Source of the DNA: Clostridiales bacterium
GTDB taxonomy: Bacteria > Bacillota > Clostridia > Oscillospirales > Oscillospiraceae
DNA: 64,000 bases
Assembly: GCA_012521555.1 (NCBI GenBank)
Contig: JAAYMC010000024.1
Span: forward strand, 1,437 to 65,436
Direction: 5' to 3'
Shown here: positions 10,786 through 50,669 of the stretch, in pieces
How positions within the stretch are numbered: the stretch's first letter is position 1
Layout of the letters: every line of letters begins with the position of its first letter
Notes under the pieces: model-generated
Told to the model about the DNA's origin: nothing
Databases searched by the model: none
What the model saw: only the letters and a program-made list of their open reading frames with translations
Program-made: the position numbers and the translations under genes

Positions 10786-11521
10786 ATGGACTTTTTTCTC
10801 ACCCTTGCGTTTTTGTTTTTTATCGGCTCCGTCGCGGGCTGGGTCGTAGAGCTTTTATTCCGGCGGTTTTTCTCCTCGGCCAATCCGGACAGGAAGTGGA
10901 TAAACCCCGGTTTTTGCTCCGGCCCGTACCTGCCGCTTTACGGCGTCGGCCTTTGCCTGATGTACGTCATCGCCCTGCTCGAGGGGACCGGCCCGTTTCA
11001 AAGCCCCGTCCTCGGGGAAATCCTTTTGTGCCTTATCATGGCGCTTTGCATGACGGCGCTGGAGTTTGCCGCGGGCAGCCTCGCCCTGAAAATCGCCAAC
11101 GTGCGGTTGTGGGACTATACGGGGCAATGAGGGAACGTGCGGGGCGTTATCTGCCCGAAATTTTCGCTCGTCTGGGCGGCGTTCGGCGCGCTGTACACGT
11201 TTTTCGTGCACCGGCATGTGAAAAGCGCCGTGGCGTGGCTGTTCGGGCACCTATCGTTTTCGTTTTTCATCGGGCTGTTCTTCGGCGTCTTCCTCGTCGA
11301 CCTGGCGCAGTCGGCGCAGCTCGTGTCGAAGCTCAAGAAATTTGCGGAGGACTACGACGTCATCGGTCCGCTACGAGGCCCTCAAGGCCAAAATTCGGGC
11401 AAAGCGCGTGGAGGCCAGGCTCAAATACTACTTCTTCCGCCCGTTTTTCACAGAGCGCCCTTTAATCGAGCACCTTCTGGAGCTTAAGGAGTCCTTCGAG
11501 CGGAGGATAAAGCGCCGGTAA
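10786..11521 (+). pseudogene. disrupted putative ABC-transporter type IV (CmpB-like) membrane protein
   Basis: NPGFCSGPYLPLYG and WDY motifs. An in-frame TGA at 11128-11130 sits where W is expected (WDYTGQ*GNVRGVICPKFS). A +1 shift at 11365-11366 restores VRYEALKAKIRAKR...ending TAA at 11521. Confidence 0.7.
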
Positions 11522-13095: not shown

Positions 13096-13290
13096 CGAAA
13101 GTGAACAAAACAGTGTGACTGTATAGCAAATACAGAGCTGTCTTCCAAAAGAAGAGAGAAACGGTTTTGTGAAGCTTTTGCCTTGTATCGGGTGAACTTC
13201 GCGTTATCCCGCCGGATAACATTATCTTCCCATCAAAGCTGAATGAAGTTCATGACAAGGCGCTGTATCTGGTATACGGCGCCTTTTTCT
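13096..13290 (+). ncRNA. candidate structured leader or small RNA ending in an intrinsic terminator
   Basis: Nested stems identified by eye (see findings) and terminator AAGGCGCTGTAT-CTGGT-ATACGGCGCCTT-TTT at 13257-13288. No recognised family. Confidence 0.45.
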
Positions 13291-13344
13291 GTCTTCTTTT
13301 GCGTCAGCACCGGCGAAAATCCTAAAGAAGAACGAGGTGATGAA

Positions 13345-15192
13345 ATGCAGGCTTTGATACTCGCAGCCGGAATGGGGACGCGGCTGAAGGACCTGACGAA
13401 AAACGCCGCGAAATGCATGGTCAAGGTGGACGGGAAACCGCTGATTGAGCGGATGCTCTGCCAGCTTGACGAGCTGGAGCTGAGTGAGATTCACATCGTC
13501 GTCGGATACATGGCGCGGGACGTCATCTCCTTTGTCCGTTCCCTGAAGATACGCACTCCCGTCCGGTTTATTGAAAACGAACTGTACGCGACGACGAACA
13601 ACATCTACTCGCTGTACATGGCGCGGGAGGTGCTCAAAAAGGACGACACGCTGCTGCTTGAGTCCGACCTCATCTTGAGCGACGGCATCCTCGGCCGGCT
13701 CGCGGACAGCCCGCACCCGAACGTGGCCCTCGTTGCGCCTTATGAAAGCTGGATGGACGGCACCGTCGTCAAAGTCGACGGGGAAGGGAATATCACGCGG
13801 TTTATCGAGAAGAAGGAGTTTGATTTCCGGGAGATCCCGAGCTATTACAAGACCGTCAACATCTACAAGTTCAGCCGGGAGTTTTCCGAGCGGTATTTCG
13901 TGCCGTTCCTCGCCGCCCACATCGAGTCTGAGTGCAAAAACGCGTATTACGAGCACGTTTTGAAGGTGCTGAGCTTCATCGACGGCTCCCTGATAAAAGC
14001 GGAAATTCTGGGCGGCGAGGCATGGTATGAAATCGACGACGCGCAGGACCTCGATATCGCCGAGTCCCTCTTTACGGACTTAAAGTACGACAAAATCAAA
14101 AGCCGCTACGGGGGTTACTGGCGATACCCGAAGCTTTTGGATTTCTGCTACCTTGTCAATCCCTACTACCCGCCGCGCCGGATGCTGGACGAGCTGAAGG
14201 CGAATTTCGAGGCGCTGATTTGCAGCTACCCGTCGGGCATCGAAGTCAACAGCCTGATTGCGGGGAAATACTTCGGCCTGAAGAAAGAGCACGTCTGCCC
14301 GGGTAACGGCGCGGCCGAACTCATCCGCTCCCTGATGGGGGCCCTGAGCGGCAACGTCGGCATCGTATATCCCACTTTTGAGGAATACCCGAACCGCCTG
14401 TGCAAAAACAAAATCGTGCCGTACTACCCGAAAGGCAGGGATTTCACGTATACGGCCAAAGACCTGGCCGATTATTACGGGCGGTTTGCCGTCGAGGCCG
14501 TTATCCTCGTCAACCCGAACAACCCGACGGGCTTTATGCTCGGCCGGGACGAGGTGCTCGCTCTCGCCAAATGGGCGGGGGAGAGAGGAATCCGGCTTGT
14601 GGTGGACGAGTCGTTTGTCGACTTTTGTGACGCGCCGGAAAAGCAGACCCTGCTCTCGGAGGCGATTTTGCAGGACAACACAAACCTTGTCGTGATAAAA
14701 AGCATTTCCAAGTCCTTCGGGGTGCCCGGGCTGCGCCTCGGGATTGCCGCAAGCGCCGACGAGGAGCTCATTCGTTCCCTCAAGAGCGACGTGGCGATCT
14801 GGAACATCAACTCCATCGCCGAGTGCTTCCTGCAGATTTTTGAAAAATACAAAAAGGATTACGACCAGGCCCTTGAGACATTCCGCCTCGTCCGCAGGCA
14901 GTTTATCGAGAAGCTGCGCCATGTCCCGAATCTCAGGGTGCTGCCCACGCAGGCCAACTTCGTCCTGTGCGAAGTCCTGGGCGGGTGCTCGGCGGAAAAG
15001 CTCGCCGAGACGCTGCTGTGCGAGCATAACATCCTGATAAAGGACCTTGGCGGCAAAAAGGGCATCAGCGGCGAGTATATCCGCGTGGCCGTCAGAACGC
15101 GGGAAGACAACAGCCGTCTTGCCGCCGCCTTGAGCAAGGTCCTCGGGCAGTCCGGCCGGGTCAGGCAGTACAATCTCGGCATGAGCGGATAG
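13345..15192 (+). CDS. fused LicC-like nucleotidyltransferase and class I/II PLP-dependent enzyme (CobD/HisC-like)
   Basis: N-terminus MQALILAAGMGTRL...KCMV...TNNIYSL...LLESDL...WYEIDD. C-terminus GNGAAELI, NPNNPTG, VVDESF, KSISKSFGVPGLRLG (PLP lysine). GAGGTG RBS. Confidence 0.85.
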   Translation: MQALILAAGMGTRLKDLTKNAAKCMVKVDGKPLIERMLCQLDELELSEIHIVVGYMARDVISFVRSLKIRTPVRFIENELYATTNNIYSLYMAREVLKKDDTLLLESDLILSDGILGRLADSPHPNVALVAPYESWMDGTVVKVDGEGNITRFIEKKEFDFREIPSYYKTVNIYKFSREFSERYFVPFLAAHIESECKNAYYEHVLKVLSFIDGSLIKAEILGGEAWYEIDDAQDLDIAESLFTDLKYDKIKSRYGGYWRYPKLLDFCYLVNPYYPPRRMLDELKANFEALICSYPSGIEVNSLIAGKYFGLKKEHVCPGNGAAELIRSLMGALSGNVGIVYPTFEEYPNRLCKNKIVPYYPKGRDFTYTAKDLADYYGRFAVEAVILVNPNNPTGFMLGRDEVLALAKWAGERGIRLVVDESFVDFCDAPEKQTLLSEAILQDNTNLVVIKSISKSFGVPGLRLGIAASADEELIRSLKSDVAIWNINSIAECFLQIFEKYKKDYDQALETFRLVRRQFIEKLRHVPNLRVLPTQANFVLCEVLGGCSAEKLAETLLCEHNILIKDLGGKKGISGEYIRVAVRTREDNSRLAAALSKVLGQSGRVRQYNLGMSG

Positions 15193-15202
15193 AGGTCATG
15201 GC

Positions 15203-15835
15203 ATGATGGAGAAAAAAGAAAAAGAGTACACAATGCTGCACTTCCTGGCAGACATACCCAATCTCTGTTCCCTCGCGGGGCTGCTCTGCTCGTTTCTCGG
15301 CGTCTATTTTGCAATCCGCGGGCAGTTTCACTATGCCCTCGTGGGCGTTTTGTGGGCCGTCGTCTTCGACTGGCTGGACGGGATGGTCGCCAAAAGGATG
15401 AAAGACAGGGACGATAAGCACCGCGCCGTGGGCGTGCAGCTCGACTCGCTGATTGACATCGTCAGTTTCGGCGTCTTTCCGGCCGTCTTTCTGCTCAGTT
15501 TCGGGGAGTTCAAACCCGCCTTCATCCCGGGCGCGTTTCTCATCGTGGGCGGCGCGGCGCTGCGGCTCGGCTATTTCAACGTCTTCGGGATGATCGACAA
15601 GCACACGTACAGGGGGCTTGCGCTGGACAACAACGTCCTCCTGCTCGCGCTGATTTTCCTGCTGGAGCGGCTGATCCCGCGCGGGGTGTTTGCCGCCGTC
15701 CTCTACGCCGTCCTGATGGCGCTGCTCGCGCTCAATCTGGCGCCCATCCGCACGTATAAGTTCGGCGGCAAGTGGTTTTACGCGCTGCTGGGCTATGTCG
15801 TCGTCATGACGGCCTGCTACGTCTTTCTTTTGTAA
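15203..15835 (+). CDS. CDP-alcohol phosphatidyltransferase family protein
   Basis: DWLDGMVAK...GVQLDSLID matches the DGxxAR...GxxxDxxxD signature; multiple TM segments. Confidence 0.9.
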   Translation: MMEKKEKEYTMLHFLADIPNLCSLAGLLCSFLGVYFAIRGQFHYALVGVLWAVVFDWLDGMVAKRMKDRDDKHRAVGVQLDSLIDIVSFGVFPAVFLLSFGEFKPAFIPGAFLIVGGAALRLGYFNVFGMIDKHTYRGLALDNNVLLLALIFLLERLIPRGVFAAVLYAVLMALLALNLAPIRTYKFGGKWFYALLGYVVVMTACYVFLL

Positions 15836-15881
15836 CGCTCGCGCCGTAAGGTGCGCGCGCTAATAAGCGCGTTTCATATAA

Positions 15882-15916
15882 AGGACCCGGTTTGCGTCTT
15901 TCGCAAACCGGGTCCT
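15882..15916. terminator. perfect hairpin between convergent genes, probable terminator
   Basis: AGGACCCGGTTTGCG-TCTTT-CGCAAACCGGGTCCT. Confidence 0.75.
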
Positions 15917-15959
15917 GTGTGTGTCTGGGTGTGATTGGGCTGAAAGCGGGGCGGCGCGC

Positions 15960-16745
15960 TTATCCCGCCGGGATCATGCGCCCCGTGTGGTCGATGGTGT
16001 ACTCGCCCTTGAGCAGCAGCTCCGATACCGGCACAATCTGATACCCGTTTGCCAGCAGGTACTCGATGATTGCCGGCAGGGCGGCGGGCGTGTTCTTCGC
16101 CGCGTTGTGGAAGAGCACGATGCTGCCCGGCTGCACGCGGGACGTGACGCGCTGGACAATCTGGTCGGCCGTCAGGTCCTTCCAGTCCAGGCTGTCGACA
16201 TCCCACTGGATCGTGTACATGCCCATGGAAGTCAGGGCTTTAATCACGTGGTCGTCGTATTCGCCGTAGGGGCAGCGGAAGAGGGTGGGCGTCACGCCCG
16301 TGACGGCGGCGATTTTTTCGTTGCACTTTGTGACGTTGCTGATAATCTGGTCGGTGGACAGGCGCGAGAAGTGCGCGTGGTCGTTGGAATGGTTCATCAC
16401 CTCGTGCCCGGCGTCGTGCAGGGCTTTAACGGACTCGGGGTATTTGTCCACCCAGAAGCCCACGACGAAAAACGTGGCTTTCACGTTGTATTTGGCGAGA
16501 ATATCAATCAGCTCCTCGGTGTCCTCGTTGCCCCAAGCCGCGTCGAAAGTAAGCGAAACGGCCTTGTTGTCCCGCTTGACGCAGTAAATCGGCAGCTCCC
16601 GCTTTGTCGCCGACACGCCCACGATGGCCGGGGAGTTGACGGCCGTGAAAATCAAAACGGTGGCGAGCGCGGTAAGCAGCGCTGTTTTTATCTTCCGGTT
16701 TGAGATTTTCGGAAGCTTCAGCCCCATAATCTGCATGCGGCGCAT
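15960..16745 (-). CDS. polysaccharide deacetylase (CE4, PdaB-like)
   Basis: N-terminal TM segment, LTFDAAWG, NHSNDH, FRCPYGEY, IQWDVDSLDW, VLFHN. Confidence 0.9.
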   Translation of the reverse strand: MRRMQIMGLKLPKISNRKIKTALLTALATVLIFTAVNSPAIVGVSATKRELPIYCVKRDNKAVSLTFDAAWGNEDTEELIDILAKYNVKATFFVVGFWVDKYPESVKALHDAGHEVMNHSNDHAHFSRLSTDQIISNVTKCNEKIAAVTGVTPTLFRCPYGEYDDHVIKALTSMGMYTIQWDVDSLDWKDLTADQIVQRVTSRVQPGSIVLFHNAAKNTPAALPAIIEYLLANGYQIVPVSELLLKGEYTIDHTGRMIPAG

Positions 16746-16884
16746 GGTTCTCCCTCCAAAAACAGTCTTTCCGCTTGCGGCGGAAAGGCGGATGTTTCTA
16801 GTTGGAGCTTATGACAATCGGCGCGCTATTATACGCTGAAAAAATCACCACCATAATACGATGACATAATAGTAATCATTAAAA

Positions 16885-17850
16885 ATGAGGACAGGCGCAA
16901 GCCTGCCCCCATATATGGCAAACACTGAGACTTCTGGGCGCAATGTCGATAGATATGAGGCAATGTCCTCGAATGAAATAAACGTCGGCGGGGCGACCGT
17001 CCTCGACTGCGGCGTGCACGCCGAAGGCGGCTTTGAGGCCGGCTTGCTGCTGGCCCGCGCGTGCCTCGGCGGCCTTGCGGACGTGACGCTCATCTGGGCC
17101 GATTACGAGGGCTACCGCTGGCCGAGCGTCTCGGTGGCGACGGACCATCCGGTCCGCGCCTGCATGGCGTCCCAGTACGCGGGCTGGCCCATCAAATGCG
17201 GCGGGAAGCTGTACATGGGCTCCGGCCCGGCCTGCGCCGTCGTCTGCCGGGGGAGCCTGTTCCGCGAGCTCGAGTACAAGGATGAGACGGACGTTATCGT
17301 CCTCTGCCTTGAGTGCCCGCGCCTGCCGGACGAAGACGTCGTCCGCCTCGTAGCCGGAGAGTGCGGGTGCTCTCCCGAACGGCTGTACATCCTCGCCGCG
17401 CCGACGGCGTCCGTCGCCGGGACGGTGCAGGTGGCCGCCCGCGCGCTGGAGACGGCGCTGTTTAAGCTCAGGCGGCTCAAATACGACCTCGGGAAAATCG
17501 TCTCCGGCATGGCCGTGTGCCCCTTATCGCCCGTCGCGGGCTCGACGAAGCACGCGCTCGGCCGCACGAACGACGCCATCTCCTACGGCGCCGTGGCGCA
17601 GATTCATGTGCGCGACGAGGACGATGCGCTGCGTAAAATCGTCCCGCTGGTGCCGTCGTGCGCGGCGCCGGAGTACGGGAAGTCGTATGTCGACATCAAA
17701 ACCGAGCACAACAACTTCTTTAATCTCAGCCCGGAGCAGTTTAACCCCGCCGTCATCGAGATGTGCAACTTAAGCACGGGCCGCGTGTTCCGCGCCGGCG
17801 CCATCCGGGCGGACATCCTCGCGCGCTCCTTCGCCGTCGAAGCCTTTTAG
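16885..17850 (+). CDS. mch: methenyltetrahydromethanopterin cyclohydrolase homolog
   Basis: GATVLDCG, CLGGLA, TDHP...CMASQYAGW, MGSGPA, APTASVAGTVQVAARALET, GRTNDAI, YGKS and a C-terminal NLSTGRVFRAG follow the Mch family in order. Start uncertain (16885 or 16915). Confidence 0.85.
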   Translation: MRTGASLPPYMANTETSGRNVDRYEAMSSNEINVGGATVLDCGVHAEGGFEAGLLLARACLGGLADVTLIWADYEGYRWPSVSVATDHPVRACMASQYAGWPIKCGGKLYMGSGPACAVVCRGSLFRELEYKDETDVIVLCLECPRLPDEDVVRLVAGECGCSPERLYILAAPTASVAGTVQVAARALETALFKLRRLKYDLGKIVSGMAVCPLSPVAGSTKHALGRTNDAISYGAVAQIHVRDEDDALRKIVPLVPSCAAPEYGKSYVDIKTEHNNFFNLSPEQFNPAVIEMCNLSTGRVFRAGAIRADILARSFAVEAF

Positions 17851-17871
17851 GGGCGGTATGAGCAAAAAAGA

Positions 17872-17910
17872 AAAAACCTGATTTAAGGCGGGGCCTTAAA
17901 TCAGGTTTTT
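17872..17910. terminator. bidirectional intrinsic terminator
   Basis: AAAAACCTGATTTAAGGC-GGG-GCCTTAAATCAGGTTTTT. Confidence 0.88.
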
Positions 17911-17921
17911 GTTTTGGTGCG

Positions 17922-18269
17922 TCAGTCGCGGAGGAGCTTTTCGCCAAGCTTTCTGCCGGCGAGGACGTGGAAGTGCAGGTGGTGGACCGTCTGGCCCGCG
18001 TCGGCACCGTTGTTCGTGATGACGCGAAAGCCCCCGGCGAGGTTTTCCCGCTCGGCAAGCATGGCGATGACCTCAAAGCACTTTGCGACGAGATGGGAGT
18101 TTTCCGGCGTGACGGCCGCGGCGCCCGGGATGTGCGCGCGCGGAATCACGAGGAAGTGGACGGGCGCCTGAGGGCTGATGTCGTGGAAGGCGACGACGTT
18201 TTCGTCTTCATAGAGCTTGTTGGACGGAATCTCTCCCGCCGCGATTTTGCAAAAGATACAGTCGGACAT
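17922..18269 (-). CDS. HIT family nucleotide-binding protein
   Basis: MSDCIFCKIAAGEIP...HDISPQAPVHFLVIP...GQTVHHLHFHVLAG. Confidence 0.93.
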   Translation of the reverse strand: MSDCIFCKIAAGEIPSNKLYEDENVVAFHDISPQAPVHFLVIPRAHIPGAAAVTPENSHLVAKCFEVIAMLAERENLAGGFRVITNNGADAGQTVHHLHFHVLAGRKLGEKLLRD

Positions 18270-18301
18270 TATGAGCGCCTCCTCTTTATATTGCCGGCGG
18301 A

Positions 18302-20938
<2,637 letters not shown>

Positions 20939-21102
20939 GAACAAACATCCTTAAAACCAAGTGATCTGTGTTTTTTCTCCATCAGGTTACAAAGGAACCC
21001 TAACCTCGTTATACTATAATAATCATTTGCGCGTTGTCAATGCCCGCGCGCACGAAAGCCGTTTCCTTTTCGGAAAACGGCTTTCGTGCGTCCTCTTCCG
21101 GT

Positions 21103-39779: not shown

Positions 39780-39911
39780 GATTGAGCGTCTCCTTTTCCT
39801 TGTGTAATGGTCAGATGAACGATATAATTATATCGCAGCCGAACCGACTAAAATAGAAAAGAATACTCATAAAATATAACAATATTACCACTTTGCAAAG
39901 GAATGGGCGGC

Positions 39912-40817
39912 ATGAACCGGCAGGCCATCTCAACGGACAGCTCCCTGCAGTCCCTCAATGATTACGGCGGATACGATTTCCCGATGCGGCTTTATCTGGA
40001 CGATTTTCGCAGTCTCCCTCTCGGGCACATCAACTGGCACTGGCACAAGCAGCTTGAGTTTTCCTGCGTGCTGCGGGGCGAAATTGAATACAGCGTGGGG
40101 GAGGCGAAAATCCGGCTGGGGCAAGGAGAGGGTGTTTTCATCAACGCCGGGCGGCTGCACGCAATAAGGCCCGCCGCCGGCCATGAAAACGCGATGGCCT
40201 TTTCCCTCGTTTTCAGCCCGGCAATCCTGTCTTACGGCGTGGAGAGCATCGTTTACCAAAAGTACGTCCTGCCGGTCGCGCAGGACAGGCGCCTGCACTG
40301 CTTAACGCTCAGACAGGACATCCCCTGGCAGAGGGAGATGCTGGCGCTGCTGGCTCAGCTTTACGGCCTTTTTCAGGAGCGGCCCTACGGGTTTGAGCTT
40401 TCCGCCCAGTCGCTTCTGGTGCAGGCCTGGCGGGAGATGGTTCTCCACCTTAACCGGAATACGGCGGAAAAGGGCGGCGCGGGAGACGCGAGCGAAGAGA
40501 GGCTCAAGCGCATGATCTCCTGCATTCAGGCAAATTTCAGCGAGGCTCTGACCCTTCAGCAGATTGCGTCGGCCGCCAGCGTGAGCAAAAGCGAGTGCAT
40601 CCGCTGCTTTAAGAAGCGGCTTGGCGTCACGCCGGTTGAATACCTGATTGAGTACCGCCTGTCAAAGGCGATGGAGTATTTGGACGGGACGGATTTGCCC
40701 GTTGCGGAAATCGGCCAGCGCTGCGGCTTTGAAAGCGCCAGCTATTTCGCGAAAACCTTCAGGCGCCGGACGGGGCTGAGCCCCTCCGGCTACCGGAAAA
40801 GGCGCGCGTCCGGCTGA
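39912..40817 (+). CDS. AraC family transcriptional regulator (cupin sensor plus HTH)
   Basis: WHWHKQLEF cupin; C-terminal LQQIA...ECIRCFKK...GFESASYFAKTFRRRTGLSPSGYRK. Confidence 0.93.
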   Translation: MNRQAISTDSSLQSLNDYGGYDFPMRLYLDDFRSLPLGHINWHWHKQLEFSCVLRGEIEYSVGEAKIRLGQGEGVFINAGRLHAIRPAAGHENAMAFSLVFSPAILSYGVESIVYQKYVLPVAQDRRLHCLTLRQDIPWQREMLALLAQLYGLFQERPYGFELSAQSLLVQAWREMVLHLNRNTAEKGGAGDASEERLKRMISCIQANFSEALTLQQIASAASVSKSECIRCFKKRLGVTPVEYLIEYRLSKAMEYLDGTDLPVAEIGQRCGFESASYFAKTFRRRTGLSPSGYRKRRASG

Positions 40818-41011
40818 AAACAAACCGAAGGCTCCATGACGCGTTTGCGGCATGGAGCCTGGGTGTTTTGGCGGAATTTGCCTAATTTTAGGTATAAGAT
40901 GATGATATTTTTGCATTTTACAAAGAAAAAACAGGCTGGTAACATTTGATTGCGGGTACCAGAAAGGTATACAATGAAAGAAAGACCGCACATAAAAGGG
41001 GGCTTACAGGG

Positions 41012-43465
41012 ATGTATCAGTTCAGGCCGGTGACAGAACGCATGGAGCGGATGCACCAGCTCATTCGGGACCGCGTCATTCAGACAGACTCTGAGATTGC
41101 GCTGATTATCACGCGTGTTTTTCAGGAGAACGAAAACCTCGTCCCGATGATTCGCCGTGCGAAGGTCCTCAAAGCGATTTGCGAGGAGATGACCGTTCGC
41201 GTTGAAGATTTTGAGATGCTTGTGGGCAGTATCAGCCGGTACTTTTGCGGCCGGAGCGTTTTCCCCGACTGGGAAGGCGCCGGCCTCGTGCCGCACTTTG
41301 TGGAATCCGGCGTCTGGACAATGCGGGAAGACGGGCGGTACCATAACCCCGACGACGAGATGGTGCGCCTGTGCATCGCGCCGGAGGATTTGGAGAAGCT
41401 CAAGTCGATCCAGCCCTACTGGAAAGGCAGGACGTACAACGACATCGCCTCGGCGTGGCTGCCGCCCGGATACGAGGAGCTTGCCCGCATGGAAGTGTCC
41501 GCCACGAAAAAGGGGATGCCCGTCCTCATGATGCCGTCCGGGCACCTCACGCCGGGCTTTAAGAAGATCATCGACTTAGGTTACGGGGCCATCCGCCGGC
41601 AGGCGCAGGAATGGCTCGACGCGCACTACAACAACCTCATGGGCGACGACGCGACGAAAGCGATGTTTTACACCGCCGTCGTGATGTGCTGCGACGCGGC
41701 GTCGACGCTGCTGCGGCGCTACGCGAAAAATTGCCTTGAGAAGGCCGCCGTCTGCGCGGATCCAAAGCGCAGGGCGGAGCTTCAGTCCATGGCGGACAGC
41801 CTGGCGTGGATCTCCGAAAACCCCTGCCGCACCTTCCGCGAGGCCTGCCAGGCGGCCATCACATACCAGTACATCCTGCGTTTAAGCTACATCAACGACG
41901 TCAGCTCCTTCGGCCGGTTCGACCAGTATACGTGGCCGTACCTGAAGAAGGATCTGGAGGAAGGGCGCCTGACGATGGACGAGGCGCAGGAAATCGTCGA
42001 CTGCTTCTTCCTCAAGGTCAACTCCATGTACTACGGCGGCGCCGGCGACGGGAAGCTCGCGGCCATCATCGGCATCGGCAACACCTACCTGCACACGACC
42101 ATCGGCGGCGTCGACCCGAAGACGGGGGAGGACGCGTCCAACCCCGTCACCTACATGGTTTTAGAGAGCCTGTCCCGCCTGAGCCTGCACGACCCGACGA
42201 TTTCGCTGCGTGTGAGCAGCAAAACGCCGGATGCGCTGTGGAACCTCGCGCTGCTCACGTCGACGAAAGTCGGCGGCCTGCCGCTGTTCCAGAACGACGA
42301 CGTCATCATCCCCGGCATCGTGCGCGAGCTGGGCTTTACGCTGGAGGACGCGCGGGATTACGCCATTATCGGCTGCCAGGAGATCACCGGCTCCGGCAAC
42401 GACTATTCCGCGGCCAACGGCGTCTGCCCGCCCCACTCCTCAATCCACTACAGCGCCGTCCTGGCGACGGCCCTCAACAACGGCAAAAACCCCATGAACG
42501 GGGAGCAGTGCTCCATCAAGACGGGGTATCTCTACGAGATGAAGTCCATAGAGGAAGTCAAGGAGGCATGGCTGAAGCTTGCCAAGTACTTCCTCAAGGC
42601 GCAGGTGTCCCTCAACAACTACTTAGAGTACATCGTCCAGTACCACACGCCGCACCCGATGCTCTCCATGTCCATCGAAGGGTGCATGGAGTCAGGCAAG
42701 GACTGCACGTGGGGCGGCGCCAAATACAACTCGTACGGCGGCACCGCGACGGGCCTTGCCACCGTGGCCGACTCCCTCACGGCCATCCGGTACATGGTCT
42801 TTGACAAGAAACTGTGCACCGCCCGCGAGATGTACGACGCCATCATGGCCAACTGGGAAGGCTACGAAGAGCTCCAGCAGAGAATCATCAGCGAAGTGCC
42901 CCACTTCGGCAACGCCGACCCGTACGCCGACGAGATGATGGCGTGGGTCATAAACGCCTACTACGAGGCCTGCAGGGAGTGCTACTCCAGCCGGGCGAAG
43001 GTTTTCAAGGCGGGGCTCTACGGCGCGGCCGACCACGTCGGGCAGGGCTACACGACGTGGGCCACGCCCGACGGGCGCAAGGCCGGCACGCCGATTGCCG
43101 ACGCGGCTTCCCCCGTCCAGGGGCGCGACACAAACGGGCCGACGGCCGTGTTCGTCTCGTCCCTCTGCTACGACCACTCCAAGTTCATGGACGGCGTGTG
43201 CCTCAACGTGAGACTGCACCCGACGGTTTTAAGCCGAGAAGACGGCATCTATAAGCTGCGCGACATGGTCAAAGCGTACATGGCCGCCGGCGGCGCGGAA
43301 GCGCAGTTTAACGTCGTGTCCACCGAGACGCTGCGCGCCGCGCAGGCAAAGCCCGACGAATACCGCAACCTCGTCGTCCGCATCGCCGGCTACTCGGCCT
43401 ACTTCGTCGAGCTCACGCGCGACTGCCAGGACGACCTCATCTCCCGCACCGAAAATCTGCTCTAG
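41012..43465 (+). CDS. glycyl radical enzyme (PFL2/dehydratase-like, uncharacterised subfamily)
   Basis: 817 aa; GRFDQY, Cys loop AIIGCQE (42371-42382), ATPDGRKAG, glycyl loop VVRIAGYSAYF (Gly at 43388-43390). Confidence 0.92.
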   Translation: MYQFRPVTERMERMHQLIRDRVIQTDSEIALIITRVFQENENLVPMIRRAKVLKAICEEMTVRVEDFEMLVGSISRYFCGRSVFPDWEGAGLVPHFVESGVWTMREDGRYHNPDDEMVRLCIAPEDLEKLKSIQPYWKGRTYNDIASAWLPPGYEELARMEVSATKKGMPVLMMPSGHLTPGFKKIIDLGYGAIRRQAQEWLDAHYNNLMGDDATKAMFYTAVVMCCDAASTLLRRYAKNCLEKAAVCADPKRRAELQSMADSLAWISENPCRTFREACQAAITYQYILRLSYINDVSSFGRFDQYTWPYLKKDLEEGRLTMDEAQEIVDCFFLKVNSMYYGGAGDGKLAAIIGIGNTYLHTTIGGVDPKTGEDASNPVTYMVLESLSRLSLHDPTISLRVSSKTPDALWNLALLTSTKVGGLPLFQNDDVIIPGIVRELGFTLEDARDYAIIGCQEITGSGNDYSAANGVCPPHSSIHYSAVLATALNNGKNPMNGEQCSIKTGYLYEMKSIEEVKEAWLKLAKYFLKAQVSLNNYLEYIVQYHTPHPMLSMSIEGCMESGKDCTWGGAKYNSYGGTATGLATVADSLTAIRYMVFDKKLCTAREMYDAIMANWEGYEELQQRIISEVPHFGNADPYADEMMAWVINAYYEACRECYSSRAKVFKAGLYGAADHVGQGYTTWATPDGRKAGTPIADAASPVQGRDTNGPTAVFVSSLCYDHSKFMDGVCLNVRLHPTVLSREDGIYKLRDMVKAYMAAGGAEAQFNVVSTETLRAAQAKPDEYRNLVVRIAGYSAYFVELTRDCQDDLISRTENLL

Positions 43466-43859: not shown

Positions 43860-44747
43860 ATGGAAAAGGTATTTATCGTCGGCGGAGGCATTATGGGAAC
43901 CGGCATGGCGCAGGTGTTTGCCCAGAACGGTTTTGAGACGATTCTCCGCGTCCGGAATCTCGGCGGCGGCCGGAAAGAGGAGCTCGCGGCCGGGTTTGAA
44001 AAGAGCTTTGGAAAGCTTGTCAAAAAAGGCAAGATGACCGAAGACGAGGCGTGGGCGGCGCTCGCCAGGATTACATACACGGAAAATCTGGCGGACGCAA
44101 AGGACTGCGATCTCGTCATCGAGGCGATTGTTGAGGACCTGGAGCTGAAGAAGGAGCTGTTTGCGGAGCTCGACGCGATCTGCAAACCTGAAACGATTCT
44201 GGCGACGAACACGTCGTCCCTGTCCATCACGGCCATCGCTCAGGCGACAGGCAGAGGCGACAAGTGCATCGGCATGCACTTCTTCAACCCCGTTCCGGTG
44301 ATGGCGCTCGTCGAGGTCATCAAGGGCGCGCACACCACGGACGAGACGAAGGACAAGGTGTTTGAGATTGTCAGGGCCATCGGCAAAACGCCTGTGCTCG
44401 TCAACGAGGCGCCGGGCTTCGTCGTCAACCGCCTGCTTGTCCCCATGATCAACGAGGCCGTTTTCTGCCTGCAGGAAGGCGTCGCCACCGCGGAAGATAT
44501 CGACAACATCATGCGGCTCGGCGCGAACCACCCGATGGGCCCCCTCGCGCTGGGCGACCTCATCGGCCTGGACGTGTGCCTGAACATCATGGACGCGCTC
44601 TACGAGGAGACGCGCGACTCCAAGTACAGGGCGTGCACGCTGCTGAGGAAGATGGTCGCGGCGGGACTGCTCGGGCGCAAGACGGGCCGCGGCTTCTTCG
44701 ACTACACATCGTCCGAGACGCAGAAAGAGAACCAAAAAGTGGGATAA
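43860..44747 (+). CDS. hbd: 3-hydroxybutyryl-CoA dehydrogenase family
   Basis: GGGIMG, IEAIVE, ATNTSSLSIT, GMHFFNPVPVM, GANHPMGP. Confidence 0.92.
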   Translation: MEKVFIVGGGIMGTGMAQVFAQNGFETILRVRNLGGGRKEELAAGFEKSFGKLVKKGKMTEDEAWAALARITYTENLADAKDCDLVIEAIVEDLELKKELFAELDAICKPETILATNTSSLSITAIAQATGRGDKCIGMHFFNPVPVMALVEVIKGAHTTDETKDKVFEIVRAIGKTPVLVNEAPGFVVNRLLVPMINEAVFCLQEGVATAEDIDNIMRLGANHPMGPLALGDLIGLDVCLNIMDALYEETRDSKYRACTLLRKMVAAGLLGRKTGRGFFDYTSSETQKENQKVG

Positions 44748-44763
44748 AACCTAGGAGGAAACA

Positions 44764-45906
<1,143 letters not shown>

Positions 45907-45931
45907 CCCTTAAGCTTAAAGGAGTGAAATT

Positions 45932-46705
45932 ATGAACGTCCTTTACGAAGTGAAAGACCACGTCGCCGTCCTTACCATAAACAGGCCTGAGGTCCTCAAC
46001 GCGCTGAATCTCGACGTGTTTGCGGAAATAAAAGACGCCGTCGAGAAGGCGGAGCGGGACGAGGACGTCTATGTGGTTGTGATTACCGGCGCGGGGCGCG
46101 CCTTCGTTGCCGGCGCGGATATTAAACAGATGAAGGATCTCGGCCCCATGGAGGCGCGCCACTTCGGCGAGTTCGGCAACGAAGCGCTTTATAAGATCGA
46201 AACGCTCACGAAGCCCGTCATCGCCGCCGTCAACGGCTACGCCCTCGGCGGCGGGTGCGAGCTGGCCTGCGCGTGCGACATCCGCATCGCCAGCGACCGC
46301 GCCAAGTTCGGCCAGCCCGAGGTGGGGCTCGGCATTATCCCCGGCGCGGGCGGGACGGTGCGGCTGCCCCGCATCGTCGGCGCCGCGAAGGCGAAGGAGC
46401 TCATCTTCACGGGGCGCATCATCGACGCGCAGGAGGCGCTGCGCATCGGCCTCGTCAGCGACGTCGTCCCCGCCGAGTCGCTCATGGAGAAGGTCATGTC
46501 CCTCGCCAAGGAGATTGCGGCCAACGCGCAGATTGCCGTGCGTCAGGCGAAGGCGTCGATCAACAACGCGCTGCAGTGCGACGTTCAGTCGGCCCTGAAG
46601 TTTGAGGCGCAGGCGTTTGCCGTCTGCTTCTCGACGGAAGACCAGAAAGACGCCATGACGGCTTTTGTCAACAAAAGCAAGGTCACGGCATTTAAGAATA
46701 AATAA
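45932..46705 (+). CDS. crt: enoyl-CoA hydratase (crotonase)
   Basis: NRPEVLNALN, FVAGADI, GGGCEL, FGQPEVGLG. Confidence 0.92.
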   Translation: MNVLYEVKDHVAVLTINRPEVLNALNLDVFAEIKDAVEKAERDEDVYVVVITGAGRAFVAGADIKQMKDLGPMEARHFGEFGNEALYKIETLTKPVIAAVNGYALGGGCELACACDIRIASDRAKFGQPEVGLGIIPGAGGTVRLPRIVGAAKAKELIFTGRIIDAQEALRIGLVSDVVPAESLMEKVMSLAKEIAANAQIAVRQAKASINNALQCDVQSALKFEAQAFAVCFSTEDQKDAMTAFVNKSKVTAFKNK

Positions 46706-46733
46706 TGGCTAATCCACCAAAGGAGTCTGCTCA

Positions 46734-47522
46734 ATGAACATCATTGTCTGTATCAAACAGGTGCCGGATACGACGGAAGTCAAGCTCGACCCGGTGACCA
46801 ACACGCTGATTCGGGAAGGCGTCCCCTCCATTATAAACCCCGACGACAAGGCCGGCATTGAAGCCGCGCTTCGCATAAAGGAGACGCACGGCGCGCACGT
46901 TACCGTCGTCTCCATGGGCCCCGCGCAGGCGGACAAGGCGCTGCGCGAGGCTCTCGCCATGGGCTGCGACGAGGCCGTCCTGCTCTCGGACAGGGCTTTC
47001 GGCGGCGCCGACACGTGGGCGACGTCCTCGACGATCGCCGGCGCGCTGAAGAAGATGAAGTTCGACCTCGTCATCTGCGGCCGCCAGGCCATCGACGGCG
47101 ACACGGCCCAGGTCGGCCCGCAGCTGGCCGAGCACCTCGGCATCCCGCAGGTCAGCTACGTCGAAGACCTGAAAATCGAGGGCGACAAGGTCATCGCAAG
47201 GCGGCAGTTTGAGGACAGGTACCACATCATCGAAGTGAAGATGCCCTGCCTGCTCACGACGCTGTCGGAGCTTAACAAGCCGAGATACATGTCCGTCGCC
47301 GGCGTGTTCGACGCGTACCGCGAGAAGGAAGTGCGCGTCATGACGCTGGAAGACATTAAGGATACCGTCGACGTGGCGAACATCGGCCTGAAAGGCTCGC
47401 CCACGCGCGTGAAGAAGTCCTTTACGAAGACGGCCAAGGGCGCCGGCACGAAGTACGAGCTCGAGCCGGACGAAGCCGTCAAGGTCATCATGGAAAAACT
47501 GGCCCAAAAGTGCCTCATTTAA
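46734..47522 (+). CDS. etfB: electron transfer flavoprotein beta subunit
   Basis: VCIKQVPDT, GADTWATS, GRQAIDGDTAQVGP. Confidence 0.96.
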   Translation: MNIIVCIKQVPDTTEVKLDPVTNTLIREGVPSIINPDDKAGIEAALRIKETHGAHVTVVSMGPAQADKALREALAMGCDEAVLLSDRAFGGADTWATSSTIAGALKKMKFDLVICGRQAIDGDTAQVGPQLAEHLGIPQVSYVEDLKIEGDKVIARRQFEDRYHIIEVKMPCLLTTLSELNKPRYMSVAGVFDAYREKEVRVMTLEDIKDTVDVANIGLKGSPTRVKKSFTKTAKGAGTKYELEPDEAVKVIMEKLAQKCLI

Positions 47523-47534
47523 GGAGATAAGGAT

Positions 47535-48542
47535 ATGAGCGAGAGCAAGAATGTCTTTGTATTTTGCGAGCAAAGGGACGGCCTGATCGCCAAGGTCTCC
47601 ATCGAACTGATTGGCAAAGGGCGTGAGCTTGCCGACGCGCTGGGCCAGAAAGTCGTCGCCGTTTTGCTGGGGCACAACATCAAGGATAAGGCGCAGCTTC
47701 TCATCGACCACGGGGCGGACGAAGTCCTCGTCGTCGACCACGAGATGCTCGCCGAATACGTCACGGAGCCTTACGCCAAAGCGATGACGCACGTCATCAG
47801 GACGTACAGGCCTGAGATTCTCCTCTACGGCGCCACCGCCATCGGCCGCGACCTCGCGCCGCGCATCGCCGCGCGCATCCACACGGGCCTGACGGCCGAC
47901 TGCACGGGGCTCGAGATCGACCCGGAGACGAAGCTGCTGCTCATGACGCGCCCGGCCTTCGGCGGCAACATCATGGCGACCATCGTCTGCGAAAACCACA
48001 GGCCCCAGATGGCCACCGTCCGCCCCGGCGTGATGAAGGCGCTTGACCGGATGGACAGAACCGGCACCGTCACGGAAGTGCCTGTAGACTTTAAGCCTGA
48101 GGACATGAACGTCACCATCCGCTCCGTCGTCCGCGAGACGAAGCATAAGACCGACATCACCGAGGCGAAAATCCTCGTCTCCGGCGGCCGCGGCCTCGGC
48201 AAGCCCGAGGGCTTTGAGATGCTGAAAGAGCTCGCTGACGCCCTCGGCGGCGACATCTCCTCGTCGAGAGCGGGCGTCGACGCCGGCTGGCAGCCGAAGG
48301 ACAGGCAGGTCGGCCAGACGGGCAAGACCGTCCGCCCGAACCTGTACATCGCCTGCGGCATCTCCGGCGCCATCCAGCACCTTGCGGGCATGGAGTCCTC
48401 GGAATACATCATCGCCATCAACAAGGACGCCGACGCGCCCATTTTCGACGTGGCGGACTTAGGGATTGTGGGCGACGTGTACGCCATCGTCCCGAAGCTC
48501 ACGGAAGCCGTCCGCAAGTACAAGGAGGCCGGCCGCCTCTAA
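47535..48542 (+). CDS. etfA: electron transfer flavoprotein alpha subunit
   Basis: [34 protein letters not shown]. Confidence 0.96.
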
Positions 48543-48629
48543 GCGGACGCCTCCTCATACAGAAGAAAATTACGGCTACAATAAATGCGGCCGGCTTTTA
48601 GACCAAGGGAGAGTACAGGGAGACAGAGC

Positions 48630-49535
48630 ATGCTGAAATCTTTTGAAGAAATAAAGGCGCGACTGGGCGGATATGAGCAGAAAAAGCGCATCGGCGTCGT
48701 CTGCGCTCAGAACGAGCACACGCTCGACGCCGTCATGCTGGCCGCGCGGGAAAACCTTGTGGAGCCGGTTCTCATCGGCAAAAAGGGCGAGATAGAGCGG
48801 CTCCTGAGCAATATGGGCGACAAACCCGGCGACATAGAAATCATCGACCTGGATGAGCCGGAAGCGTGCGCCGCCGAAGCGGCGCGGCTTGTGAGGGAAG
48901 GGCGGCTTGACTGCATCATTAAGGGCAACATCGAGACGGGCGTCATGATGAAGGTCCTCGTCAGCCGCGAGCAGGGGATCCGGGAGAGCAAGACGCTCTC
49001 GCACATCTCGTTTTTCGAGTCGCCGTACTACCACAAGATGTTCGCCATGACGGACGGCGCCCTGCTTGTCTACCCCACGGTGGAGCAGAAGCGCGATGCG
49101 ATTGAAAACGCCGTGCGCGCCTTCCACAAGCTGGGGATTGAGGAGCCGAAAGTCGCCGTTCTCGCCGCGGTGGAGCATGTCAACCCCAAGATGAAGGAGA
49201 CCGTCGAGGCGGCGGAGCTGAAGAAGATGTGGGAAGAGGGCGCCTTTTCCCGCTGCATCGTGGAAGGGCCGATTTCCTACGACCTTGCGATGCAGAAAGA
49301 CGCCGCCGAGATTAAAAAATTCGACAGCCCCGTCGCCGGAGACGCGGACATTCTCGTCGTGCCGGACATCGCAACCGGCAACATTCTCCTCAAAGCGCTG
49401 AGCGGGACGGGCGGCGCGAAATTTGCCGGCACAATTATCGGCGCGCAGGTGCCGGTTATCGTCACGTCGCGCTCCATGCCGATGCGGGACAAGTACCTGT
49501 CCATCGTGCTCACCGCCGTCATCGGAAAAATGTAA
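48630..49535 (+). CDS. ptb: phosphate butyryltransferase family acyltransferase
   Basis: VAVLAAVEHVNPKM, EGPISYDLA, VAGDADILVVP, PVIVTSRS. Confidence 0.85.
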   Translation: MLKSFEEIKARLGGYEQKKRIGVVCAQNEHTLDAVMLAARENLVEPVLIGKKGEIERLLSNMGDKPGDIEIIDLDEPEACAAEAARLVREGRLDCIIKGNIETGVMMKVLVSREQGIRESKTLSHISFFESPYYHKMFAMTDGALLVYPTVEQKRDAIENAVRAFHKLGIEEPKVAVLAAVEHVNPKMKETVEAAELKKMWEEGAFSRCIVEGPISYDLAMQKDAAEIKKFDSPVAGDADILVVPDIATGNILLKALSGTGGAKFAGTIIGAQVPVIVTSRSMPMRDKYLSIVLTAVIGKM

Positions 49536-49550
49536 GAGGGGGGCTGCCTG

Positions 49551-50669
49551 TTGAAGACGTATCGCATTCTCGCCATCAACCCCGGCTCCACCTCGACGAA
49601 AGTGGCGCTGTTTGAAAACGACAAGGTTATCTTTCGCGTCAACATCGAGCACAACATGGAGGAACTCAACAAGTTCCCCGAAGTGTCCGACCAGAAGCCG
49701 TACCGCCTCGAGAAAATCAGGGAGGTTTTAAAGGAGCACGGCGTCGATCTAGCGTCGATAGACGCCTTCGTCGGCCGCGGCGGCGGGCAGGAGGCCATGG
49801 AGGGCGGCACGTACCGCGTCAACGACCTCGCCTACGAACACGCCCGCATCGGGTACAGGCTCGTGCACCCGTGCATCCTCGGCTCGCAGCTCGCCCGCGA
49901 CCTGGGCGACCAGTACGGCAAGCCGTCCTTCTTCGTCAACCCACCGTGCGTGGACGAGCTGGAAGACGTCGCGCGCGTGTCCGGCATGAAGGAGATTCTC
50001 CGCCGGCAATACGTCCACGCCCTCAACCAGAAGGAAGTCGCCAAGCGCTTTGCCGAGTCCATCGGCAAGCGGTACGAGGACATAAACCTCATCGTCTGCC
50101 ACATCGGCGGCGGGCTGTCCGTCACGGCGCACCGCCGCGGGCGCATGGTGGACTCCAACGACGCCCTCGGAAGCACCGGCCCGTTTTCGCCGACGCGCAG
50201 CGGCGACGTGTCCGCCATCGGGCTTATGCGCATGTGCTTTTCGGGCAAGTACACCGAGCAGGATATTTACAACAAAATCACGAAAAACGGCGGCCTCGTC
50301 GATTACCTCGGCACGAACGACGTCCGCGAAGTGAAGGCCCGCATCGCCAGGGGCGACAAATACGCGCGGCTCATCCTCGACGCCATGTACTACCAGATCA
50401 AGAAGGAAATCGGCGCGATGAGCGTCGTTCTGGAAGGGCAGGTGGAGGCGATTATTCTCACGGGCGGCGTCAGCTACGACGAGGACCTCGTCGAGAGCGT
50501 GCGGAAATCGTGCTCGTTTATCGCCCCCGTCGTCGCCATGCCGGGCGAATTTGAGATGGAAGCCCTCGCCAGAGGCGCGCTCGCCGTCCTCACGGGTGAG
50601 GAGGAGGCAAAGGAGTACACCGGCGTCTCCCCCATAAACCCCGAGCTCTTCGGCGACGCAATCTGGTAA
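49551..50669 (+). CDS. buk: butyrate kinase family
   Basis: ILAINPGSTSTK, HALNQK, HIGGGLSV, GPFSP, PGEFEMEAL. TTG start. Confidence 0.88.
   Translation: MKTYRILAINPGSTSTKVALFENDKVIFRVNIEHNMEELNKFPEVSDQKPYRLEKIREVLKEHGVDLASIDAFVGRGGGQEAMEGGTYRVNDLAYEHARIGYRLVHPCILGSQLARDLGDQYGKPSFFVNPPCVDELEDVARVSGMKEILRRQYVHALNQKEVAKRFAESIGKRYEDINLIVCHIGGGLSVTAHRRGRMVDSNDALGSTGPFSPTRSGDVSAIGLMRMCFSGKYTEQDIYNKITKNGGLVDYLGTNDVREVKARIARGDKYARLILDAMYYQIKKEIGAMSVVLEGQVEAIILTGGVSYDEDLVESVRKSCSFIAPVVAMPGEFEMEALARGALAVLTGEEEAKEYTGVSPINPELFGDAIW

Follow-up and report, generated by a model that had tools for sequence, protein, structure and literature searches.

A stand-alone, signature-altered subfamily of the methenyl-tetrahydromethanopterin cyclohydrolase family in anaerobic Bacillota

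We analyzed a 64-kb stretch of contig JAAYMC010000024.1 from a Clostridiales bacterium of the family Oscillospiraceae (the whole stretch is called the window throughout) and examined one gene within it, a relative of methenyl-tetrahydromethanopterin (H4MPT) cyclohydrolase, or Mch. The gene is a real, intact Mch relative that is probably transcribed, and its product belongs with certainty to the MCH fold family. From the sequence comparisons presented below, we consider it moderately probable that the gene belongs to a distinct subfamily of stand-alone paralogs in anaerobic Bacillota whose recognition of the physiological substrate or cofactor has changed. A changed substrate is the best-supported reading because of three observations taken together, namely the altered residues, the coexistence of both paralogs in the same genomes and the lack of linkage to H4MPT genes. 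The cofactor of this variant subfamily is probably not the textbook one.

The window protein adopts the Mch fold and retains the catalytic residues

A first-pass annotation of the window had described a full-length Mch-like sequence and had proposed a search with hidden Markov models (HMMs) as a check. This search gave strong matches above both cutoffs. The protein scores 330 bits (E 1.8e-98) against its only Pfam match, MCH (PF02289; cutoff 25 bits), and 320.7 bits against the NCBIfam equivalog TIGR03120 (one_C_mch; cutoff 228.8). Near full-length matches in the PDB are 1qlm from Methanopyrus kandleri (E 1.9e-79) and 4gvq (E 2e-68), and the aligned structures further include 4gvq/4gvr from Archaeoglobus fulgidus and 4fio from Methanobrevibacter ruminantium. 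Identity is ~43% to the M. kandleri structure and 35–43% across the solved archaeal enzymes. An AlphaFold2 (AF2) model built on 23 relatives has a mean predicted local distance difference test score of 74 and a predicted template-modeling (TM) score of 0.73, with low confidence in the loop at residues 274–280. When this model was searched against the PDB with Foldseek, only Mch structures were returned (1qlm, 4gvq and 4fio; E 1e-32 to 1e-28; TM ~0.72), and the model and these matches agree on the two-domain alpha/beta Mch fold.

Canonical Mch (EC 3.5.4.27; PF02289, TIGR03120; structures 1QLM, 4GVQ/4GVR/4GVS and 4FIO) has the same fold and length as the window protein. Both Mch types described below share 51 near-invariant residues, including Q97, A99, R186, E189, TDHP and GRTND. 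The catalytic pair R186 and E189 aligns with R183 and E186 of A. fulgidus, the latter being the residue changed in 4gvr, an E186Q mutant, and the pair is invariant in all 120 homologues and 85 loci that were compared. Q97 and A99 are the Gln and Ala that we take to correspond to the 93–95 active-site segment of A. fulgidus. The motifs singled out at first pass, VQVAARALET with its Arg/Glu pair, GRTNDAI, SQYAGW and GSGPAC for GSGPAR, are all present (Table 1).

A concerted set of residue changes defines a variant type of Mch

A protein database search with the window sequence yielded 5679 homologues, of which the closest 120 were examined; all of these that carry a source name are from Bacillota. 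Among the matches listed are a 99% identical twin from another assembly, a Papillibacter metagenome-assembled genome (MAG; 79%), Sporobacter termitidis (63%), Oscillospiraceae WX1 (60%), two copies from Candidatus Formimonas warabiya (61% and 51%), Sporomusa sphaeroides (49%), Moorella (46%), Dehalobacterium, Dehalobacter sp. DCM and many Desulfosporosinus. In a MAFFT alignment with the archaeal structures, the 120 homologues split cleanly into two types. The variant type comprises the window protein and the top ~42 matches; when the best 120 are clustered at 90% identity, ~40 of the clusters are of this type. Its carriers, which are restricted to Bacillota, are Papillibacter, Sporobacter, Oscillospiraceae WX1, Dehalobacterium, Formimonas and many Desulfosporosinus, and the clade is common in digesters, peat and contaminated aquifers.

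The two types are told apart by a few signature positions. Residue 117 is Cys, rarely Ser or Gly, in the variant type, whereas all other sequences have the Arg of GSGPAR. The canonical pair of Met, Leu, His or Lys followed by Glu is replaced by R196-R197, which amounts to E197R with a new Arg196. In addition, Y268 replaces Phe, F279-N280 replaces Tyr followed by Asp or Lys, Q285 replaces Leu, and Ser or Phe at position 233 replaces Leu. In a comparison set of 60 canonical sequences (Bacillota, Planctomycetota, Alphaproteobacteria and Archaea), all 60 have R117 and F268, 98% have Y279 and 90% have L285, whereas 18 variant sequences have Cys, Tyr, Phe and Gln at these positions. Compared with canonical Mch, the window protein has Arg117, Phe268, Tyr279 and Leu285 replaced and Glu197 changed to Arg. 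It consequently lacks the invariant Arg of GSGPAR, Phe of YGxPF and Tyr of FYxIDP, and it carries the full variant signature (C117, RR196–197, Y268, F279 and Q285) while keeping R186 and E189. The reaction centre is thus conserved, and the concerted changes fall on a handful of residues that do not otherwise vary. The altered family motif that the first-pass annotation had flagged, GSGPAC for GSGPAR, is therefore not a private mutation but a hallmark of a monophyletic stand-alone clade of Bacillota.

A scan of species-representative genomes with peptide patterns added 78 further Mch loci, and typing of these, for a total of 85 typed loci, confirmed the two-type pattern. Variant members score 321–344 bits against TIGR03120, compared with 357–383 bits for canonical Bacillota copies. 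All of these scores are above the cutoff, and databases therefore name the variant members Mch.

The variant clade is under purifying selection and the window copy is an old resident

A neighbor-joining tree (Kimura distances, 322 trimmed columns, 85 sequences, 200 bootstraps) recovered Bacillota Mch as monophyletic in 200 of 200 bootstraps and the variant clade, allowing a few intermediates, in 190 of 200. Note that the deeper branching order is provisional because the tree is neighbor-joining and not maximum-likelihood. One Bacillota subclade consists of copies embedded in H4MPT gene clusters (Sporomusa, Moorella, Desulfosporosinus lacus, Formimonas copy 2, Gracilibacter and Peptococcaceae). 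In the sister subclade, unclustered Desulfosporosinus copies with the canonical signature form a grade that leads to the variant clade, which is nested among unclustered Desulfosporosinus and Peptococcaceae copies. The phylogeny that had been proposed at first pass thus places the window protein inside the variant clade, where it is sister to the Papillibacter copy within an Oscillospiraceae group (window, Papillibacter, two Sporobacter and WX1) that lies next to Formimonas copy 1 and Dehalobacterium. The clade is under purifying selection, with pairwise Nei-Gojobori dN/dS values of 0.05–0.28 within it and 0.185 between the window and Papillibacter copies. The dN/dS near 1 that had been named beforehand as a sign of decay is not seen.

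The two nearest groups outside the variant clade differ from the window protein in distinct ways. The cluster-embedded Bacillota copies, from Sporomusa sphaeroides, Moorella, D. lacus, Formimonas (copy 2) and Gracilibacter, belong to the same Bacillota clade at 46–51% identity and share Tyr98 and RAC(M/L)A(S/A)QYAGW with the window protein, but they have the canonical signature and lie between fhcC and an ATP-grasp gene in a ~17-gene cluster. The unclustered Desulfosporosinus paralogs (e.g. D. youngiae) are stand-alone and 47–54% identical to the window protein, but they keep R117, F268, Y279 and Glu197; the variant clade has gone one step further. These paralogs constitute a second stand-alone class (L007 from D. 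youngiae, L025–L030, L032–L034 and L038), with the canonical signature and no H4MPT gene within 10 kb.

The gene order deacetylase–Mch–HIT–AlaRS–CBS–deaminase is kept in the twin contig (L086), in Papillibacter, in the contig of P0008, whose Mch is 68% identical, and in an uncultured Sporobacter MAG, and Oscillospiraceae WX1 shares most of this block (deacetylase, Mch, HIT, AlaRS and CBS). Mch identity between the window and Papillibacter is 79%, or 82% without the N-terminus, and the flanking orthologs are 72–95% identical. Because synteny is conserved and the divergence of Mch falls within the range of its flanking orthologs, the evidence points to an old, vertically inherited resident of the Oscillospiraceae lineage and not to a recent import. 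The host-like GC and codon style noted at first pass hold as well: the gene has 65.8% GC (window 59.8%), and its third-codon-position GC content (GC3) of 0.85 is inside the range of neighbor genes. On these grounds, recent horizontal acquisition was rejected. The earlier label of an orphan mch is apt in that no H4MPT genes lie nearby, but the gene is neither unique nor recently acquired, since its synteny extends across Oscillospiraceae relatives down to ~60% Mch identity.

Variant copies stand apart from H4MPT genes, which often surround canonical copies

As described at first pass, the window gene is monocistronic, lying between the divergent deacetylase gene and a strong terminator. The terminator is a bidirectional hairpin with an 18-bp stem, shared with the convergent HIT gene. 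Approximately 53 window genes were called by GC3 and then scanned against Pfam, and no ftr/fhc, mtd, Fae, or pterin or methanofuran biosynthesis gene was found among them. Used as tblastn queries against the entire window, 17 Sporomusa proteins encoded in the H4MPT cluster likewise gave no match, and the claim that the 64 kb hold no H4MPT pathway genes therefore stands.

The same question was asked of relatives by using 10-kb flanks of 19 distinct variant loci and 6 kb for four further loci, or ~23 loci in all. The 17 cluster proteins gave 0 matches by tblastn around the 19 loci, and the precomputed Pfam contexts of the four further loci are without H4MPT or one-carbon (C1) genes except for one RACo. 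Unlike canonical Mch, the variant copies at these ~23 loci are never linked to ftr/fhc, mtd or cofactor-biosynthesis genes. All-versus-all clustering of open reading frames (ORFs) from the 19 loci yielded no neighbor conserved beyond lineage-level synteny. A conserved operon partner was therefore rejected: only lineage-specific synteny was found, an apparent association with ABC transporters proved to involve unrelated paralogs at varying distances, and the four additional contexts were inconsistent. The sole C1-related neighbor among the ~23 loci is a RACo-type reductive activator of corrinoid enzymes, with variant Mch directly downstream on the same strand (L088:4293-7002). A riboswitch or leader upstream of Mch was likewise rejected, as Rfam searches at E<=1 returned nothing over 15800–18400 and nothing near Mch in seven variant loci. 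A simple scan revealed no sigma-70-like promoter upstream of Mch.

Canonical Mch of Sporomusa sphaeroides lies inside a contiguous H4MPT/methanofuran cluster of ~17 genes (L006:185-17342). The cluster encodes FhcB, FhcA, FhcD (FTR) and FhcC together with a GHMP kinase, a flavoprotein, the pterin-binding protein DUF6513, DUF447, an Mpt_N dehydrogenase, ATP-grasp enzymes, CitG, MfnB, an amino-acid kinase and proteins resembling hydantoinase and HisA. By tblastn, the same full cluster surrounds the canonical copies of Gracilibacter, two Peptococcaceae contigs, D. lacus and Formimonas copy 2 (L031, L035, L036, L039 and L040), and a partial cluster is present in an Eubacteriales MAG (L037). H4MPT/methanofuran genes, including full sets, had already been recorded in Firmicutes (Chistoserdova 2016, PMC5020050), in keeping with the first-pass remark that such occurrences have been reported.

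Formimonas (L010 and L039) and three Desulfosporosinus MAGs hold both Mch types at different places in the genome. The variant and canonical types are paralogs kept side by side, and simple redundancy is disfavored because both are retained in the same genomes.

A separate observation concerns the spread of the clustered pathway itself. FTR proteins of Desulfovibrionaceae (Solidesulfovibrio sp. DCM and Pseudodesulfovibrio; P0140, P0151, P0171 and P0188) are 66–69% identical to Sporomusa FTR. Because this is as close as other Bacillota FTRs are, it suggests that the clustered pathway was transferred between phyla.

The 5′ end of the gene has been replaced in this species

The first 32 residues of the window protein have no counterpart in any relative. 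Positions 16779–16851 of the window are 90.5% identical to the region upstream of the Papillibacter gene (L001), and homology is back at 16981 (N33-V-G-G-A-T). Between these flanks, 129 nucleotides of AT-richer DNA stand in place of ~184 nucleotides that in Papillibacter hold a GGAG ribosome-binding site and codons 1–32. A frameshift as the origin of the odd N-terminus was rejected because no frame encodes the conserved "...LSPN..A..." N-terminus and the DNA between the conserved flanks is non-homologous. The atypical first 25–35 residues reported at first pass are thus real, arising with non-homologous DNA over the first 32 residues, and they are private to this species and not a trait of the subfamily. 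No repeat of the replaced segment was found elsewhere in the window.

The alignment of the window protein to TIGR03120 starts at profile position 18, compared with position 3 in nine relatives, so that the conserved N-terminal segment of canonical Mch (profile positions 3–17) is missing in the window species. The window protein has also lost N10, which is invariant across the family, and five further N-terminal residues that do not vary among variant members. AF2 confidence is <50 for residues 1–27. The rest of the protein is as constrained as the Papillibacter ortholog. A relative-rate test over residues 33–321 with four outgroups counted 11–16 window-unique changes against 15–17 Papillibacter-unique changes, giving no acceleration, and only a single change private to the window (F56L) affects a site that is invariant in the variant clade.

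The organism recurs in metagenomes from anaerobic digesters, biogas reactors and manure. Eight metagenomes dated 2016–2025, from digesters, bioreactors and manure, contain the same allele in intact form, including its replaced 5′ end. With 3–4 variable sites in these eight metagenomes, the population is nearly clonal and the ratio of nonsynonymous to synonymous polymorphism (pN/pS) is uninformative. The window differs from the 99.6%-identical contig L086 at two sites, both nonsynonymous. Position 17524 is T in the window (codon 214, Leu) and G (Val) in L086 and in all eight metagenomes, which makes the window allele the minority one; other variable sites in Mch are 17708 (H275R) and 17678–17679. 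Contigs from metatranscriptomes cover Mch in four digester runs at approximately one-third of its neighbors' depth, which is supportive, not proof, of transcription.

A probable change in the cofactor periphery around a conserved reaction centre

By homology, the variant enzymes would keep the chemistry of Mch, in which a water activated by Glu189 and tuned by Arg186 would open or close the N5,N10-methenyl imidazolinium ring of a reduced pterin-type C1 carrier. Concerted replacement of invariant residues with the reaction centre kept is the pattern to be expected if the periphery of the cofactor changes. We infer that the changed residues re-model cofactor recognition outside the reactive centre. 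Specifically, the positive charge of Arg after the glycine-rich GSGP turn at a helix N-terminus is lost, an Arg-Arg pair is gained on the catalytic helix with loss of a Glu there, and positions 268 and 279 have exchanged a Phe/Tyr hydroxyl. The window species inherited the gene vertically in the deacetylase–Mch–HIT–AlaRS block, and new sequence later took the place of its ribosome-binding site and first 32 codons.

For Oscillospiraceae, the substrate would most likely not come from the classical H4MPT pathway. The anaerobic carriers of the variant gene run folate-based C1 metabolism, and for this reason a methenyl or formyl unit bound to tetrahydrofolate would be the leading candidate. We put forward only tentatively, as a possibility that we rate well below a changed substrate in general, that in strictly anaerobic Bacillota without H4MPT an Mch-fold enzyme has come to serve a C1 carrier other than methanopterin, for which tetrahydrofolate is the most plausible choice. 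If this is true, then the variant clade would form a third, non-homologous class of methenyl-folate cyclohydrolase that has been misnamed by an "equivalog" HMM. The known enzymes FolD and FchA catalyze an analogous opening of a methenyl-pterin ring, and a reaction of their type would be the most plausible alternative class for the variant enzyme. However, they are functional analogues only and have no sequence or fold kinship with the window protein, which matches MCH only in Pfam and Mch only by Foldseek. FolD and FchA give the N10-formyl product, whereas Mch gives N5-formyl. By analogy, a folate-type variant might have the N5 regiochemistry of Mch and interconvert methenyl- and 5-formyl-tetrahydrofolate. 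The suggestion of a repurposed cyclohydrolase made at first pass has thus gained a monophyletic stand-alone clade, concerted residue changes, purifying selection and coexistence with canonical Mch in its favor.

Weighing of alternative explanations

Several points speak against a changed substrate. All variant members pass the TIGR03120 equivalog cutoff, and they retain the catalytic residues along with the 51 family-invariant ones. Complete H4MPT clusters exist in Bacillota (PMC5020050). Because Formimonas, probably Dehalobacterium and some Desulfosporosinus also have the H4MPT pathway, the variant could be an isoenzyme that uses H4MPT as well. Furthermore, the pathway search covered only 64 kb of this genome and the 10-kb flanks of relatives. 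Such points fit an ordinary methenyl-H4MPT cyclohydrolase whose partners (fhcABCD/ftr, mtd and cofactor biosynthesis) lie elsewhere in the genome and whose changes are neutral or serve isoenzyme tuning; a dispersed pathway of this kind was the other alternative offered at first pass. We nevertheless regard this explanation as unlikely. In Bacillota that possess it, the pathway is one tight 17-gene cluster with its own canonical Mch, to which the variant is an extra, unlinked gene, and residues invariant across three bacterial phyla and Archaea have been replaced in concert. The genome scan returned a second, canonical copy in Formimonas, Desulfosporosinus and Peptococcaceae but only the variant copy in six Oscillospiraceae/Clostridiales genomes, although a Sporomusa-type second Mch would escape the peptide patterns used. 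In a search with Sporomusa FTR, about a quarter of the best 120 matches carried names. These were Sporomusa and other Negativicutes, Moorella, Syntrophaceticus, D. lacus, Formimonas, Dehalobacterium, Peptococcaceae and some Desulfovibrionaceae, with no Oscillospiraceae among them. No pathway gene was found in the 64 kb. As a functional equivalog of Mch, the window gene is doubtful because canonical invariant residues, the N-terminal segment and pathway linkage are all lacking.

Other points concern this copy in particular. No usable Shine-Dalgarno sequence precedes the ATG codons at 16885, 16915 or 16963, a hairpin lies over the first of them, and the ribosome-binding site and conserved N-terminus have been swapped for 129 nucleotides of unrelated, AT-richer DNA. 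Judged from the sequence, the missing N-terminal residues, N10 among them, and the missing Shine-Dalgarno raise doubt about full activity. The evidence for transcription is also weakened in that assembled RNA contigs may contain DNA, and one of them spans the divergent intergenic region. The gene could therefore be an early-stage relic that was crippled by the 5′ replacement and has had too little time for further decay, for which the loss of six variant-invariant residues, the profile match from position 18 instead of 3, the lower depth of RNA contigs and the two nonsynonymous differences from L086 may also be cited. This is quite improbable in our judgment, given that the ORF is intact in the window, L086 and the eight metagenomes, that an in-frame ATG was retained or recruited, that residues 33–321 show no acceleration and a single private change at a variant-invariant site, and that dN/dS against Papillibacter is 0.185. 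Less probable still is salvage or cross-feeding, by which the enzyme would act on methanopterin-type cofactors, or their breakdown products, from co-resident methanogens without any biosynthesis of its own. The recurrence of the organism in methanogen-rich digester, biogas reactor and manure communities and the lack of biosynthesis genes nearby would suit such a role. However, no transporter or partner enzyme is conserved beside any variant copy, a single cyclohydrolase step without formyltransferase or dehydrogenase partners gives no obvious benefit, and the changed invariant residues speak against an unchanged cofactor. Moreover, several variant carriers are free-living isolates grown in pure culture. 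We therefore favor a stand-alone paralog subfamily with changed substrate or cofactor recognition over each of these alternatives.

Implications for the use of mch as a marker

A search of full-text literature found no description of a stand-alone, signature-altered Mch clade in Firmicutes, of its function or of roles for the changed residues. The variant clade was thus previously unremarked, whereas H4MPT genes in Firmicutes were already known. Studies of metagenomes and metatranscriptomes commonly take mch as a marker gene of methanogenesis and of methylotrophy linked to H4MPT, yet a sizeable Bacillota clade passes the equivalog model while being uncoupled from the pathway and altered at canonical invariant residues. 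If this clade uses another cofactor, then pathway inference from Mch in anaerobic communities is partly wrong, and the clade represents a new enzyme of anaerobic C1/folate metabolism. If it uses H4MPT, then Oscillospiraceae would be added to the organisms known to have methanopterin-type cofactors, in itself a notable result. Cultured carriers exist, including Sporobacter termitidis DSM 10068 and Desulfosporosinus species.

Table 1. Features of the Mch locus in window coordinates.
Feature	Position	Strand	Basis or remark
Divergent polysaccharide deacetylase gene (PF01522)	15960..16745	-	syntenic, not functionally linked
Lineage-specific replaced segment (33 nucleotides upstream plus codons 1–32; 49% GC)	16852..16980	+	non-homologous to Papillibacter ortholog
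Variant-type Mch ORF (MCH family, PF02289), 321 amino acids	16885..17850	+	ORF listing of the window; profile, structure-match and model evidence
12-bp hairpin overlapping first ATG	16885..16912	+	
TDHP, residues 86–89, common to canonical Mch	17140..17151	+	alignments
SQYAGW, residues 96–101; Y98 in place of archaeal Lys in all Bacillota copies	17170..17187	+	
GSGPAC, residues 112–117; C117 in place of canonical Arg	17218..17235	+	alignments
R186-A-L-E189, catalytic Arg/Glu pair within VQVAARALET	17440..17451	+	alignment with A. fulgidus R183/E186
R196-R197 in FKLRR, subfamily signature; canonical M/L/H/K then Glu	17470..17475	+	alignments
GRTND, residues 226–230 (GRTNDAI, 226–232), common to canonical Mch	17560..17574	+	alignments
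Y268, subfamily signature; canonical Phe 100% conserved	17686..17688	+	60-sequence comparison
NFFNLSPEQFN, residues 277–287, with F279, Q285 and N287	17713..17745	+	alignments
Bidirectional intrinsic terminator, 18-bp stem, common to Mch (+) and HIT (-)	17872..17910	.	
Convergent HIT-family gene, followed by AlaRS (18302-20944)	17922..18260	-	syntenic neighbor

Other features of the window and related contigs

The remaining gene content of the window is housekeeping and fermentative, including GAPDH, AlaRS, PNPase, MnmG, MnmE, PPDK, a split transketolase, Der, PlsY and GpsA. A complete butyrate-formation operon, hbd-bcd-crt-etfBA-ptb-buk, occupies 43860–50669. At 39903–43465, a gene for an AraC-type regulator precedes one for a PFL-like glycyl-radical enzyme of 839 amino acids, with no activating enzyme seen directly beside it. 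The syntenic deacetylase–Mch block of a related Oscillospiraceae contig has a reverse transcriptase of a group II intron (RVT_1 and GIIM; L087:300-1691) ~4 kb upstream.

Two further loci distinguish the window from its relatives. A PF06541 gene (CmpB-like, "ABC-transporter type IV") at 10786–11518 is split by a frameshift, with tblastn matches in frames +1 and +2, whereas contig L086 has an intact gene of 244 amino acids; either the gene has become a pseudogene in this strain or the assembly is in error. Between a GyrI-like gene and the deacetylase gene, at 13243–15835, lie a nucleotidyltransferase/class-I aminotransferase fusion and a CDP-alcohol phosphatidyltransferase. This pair is present in the window and L086 but not at the same place in the Papillibacter MAG, and it looks like a small insertion encoding a module for head-group or phospho-alcohol modification.

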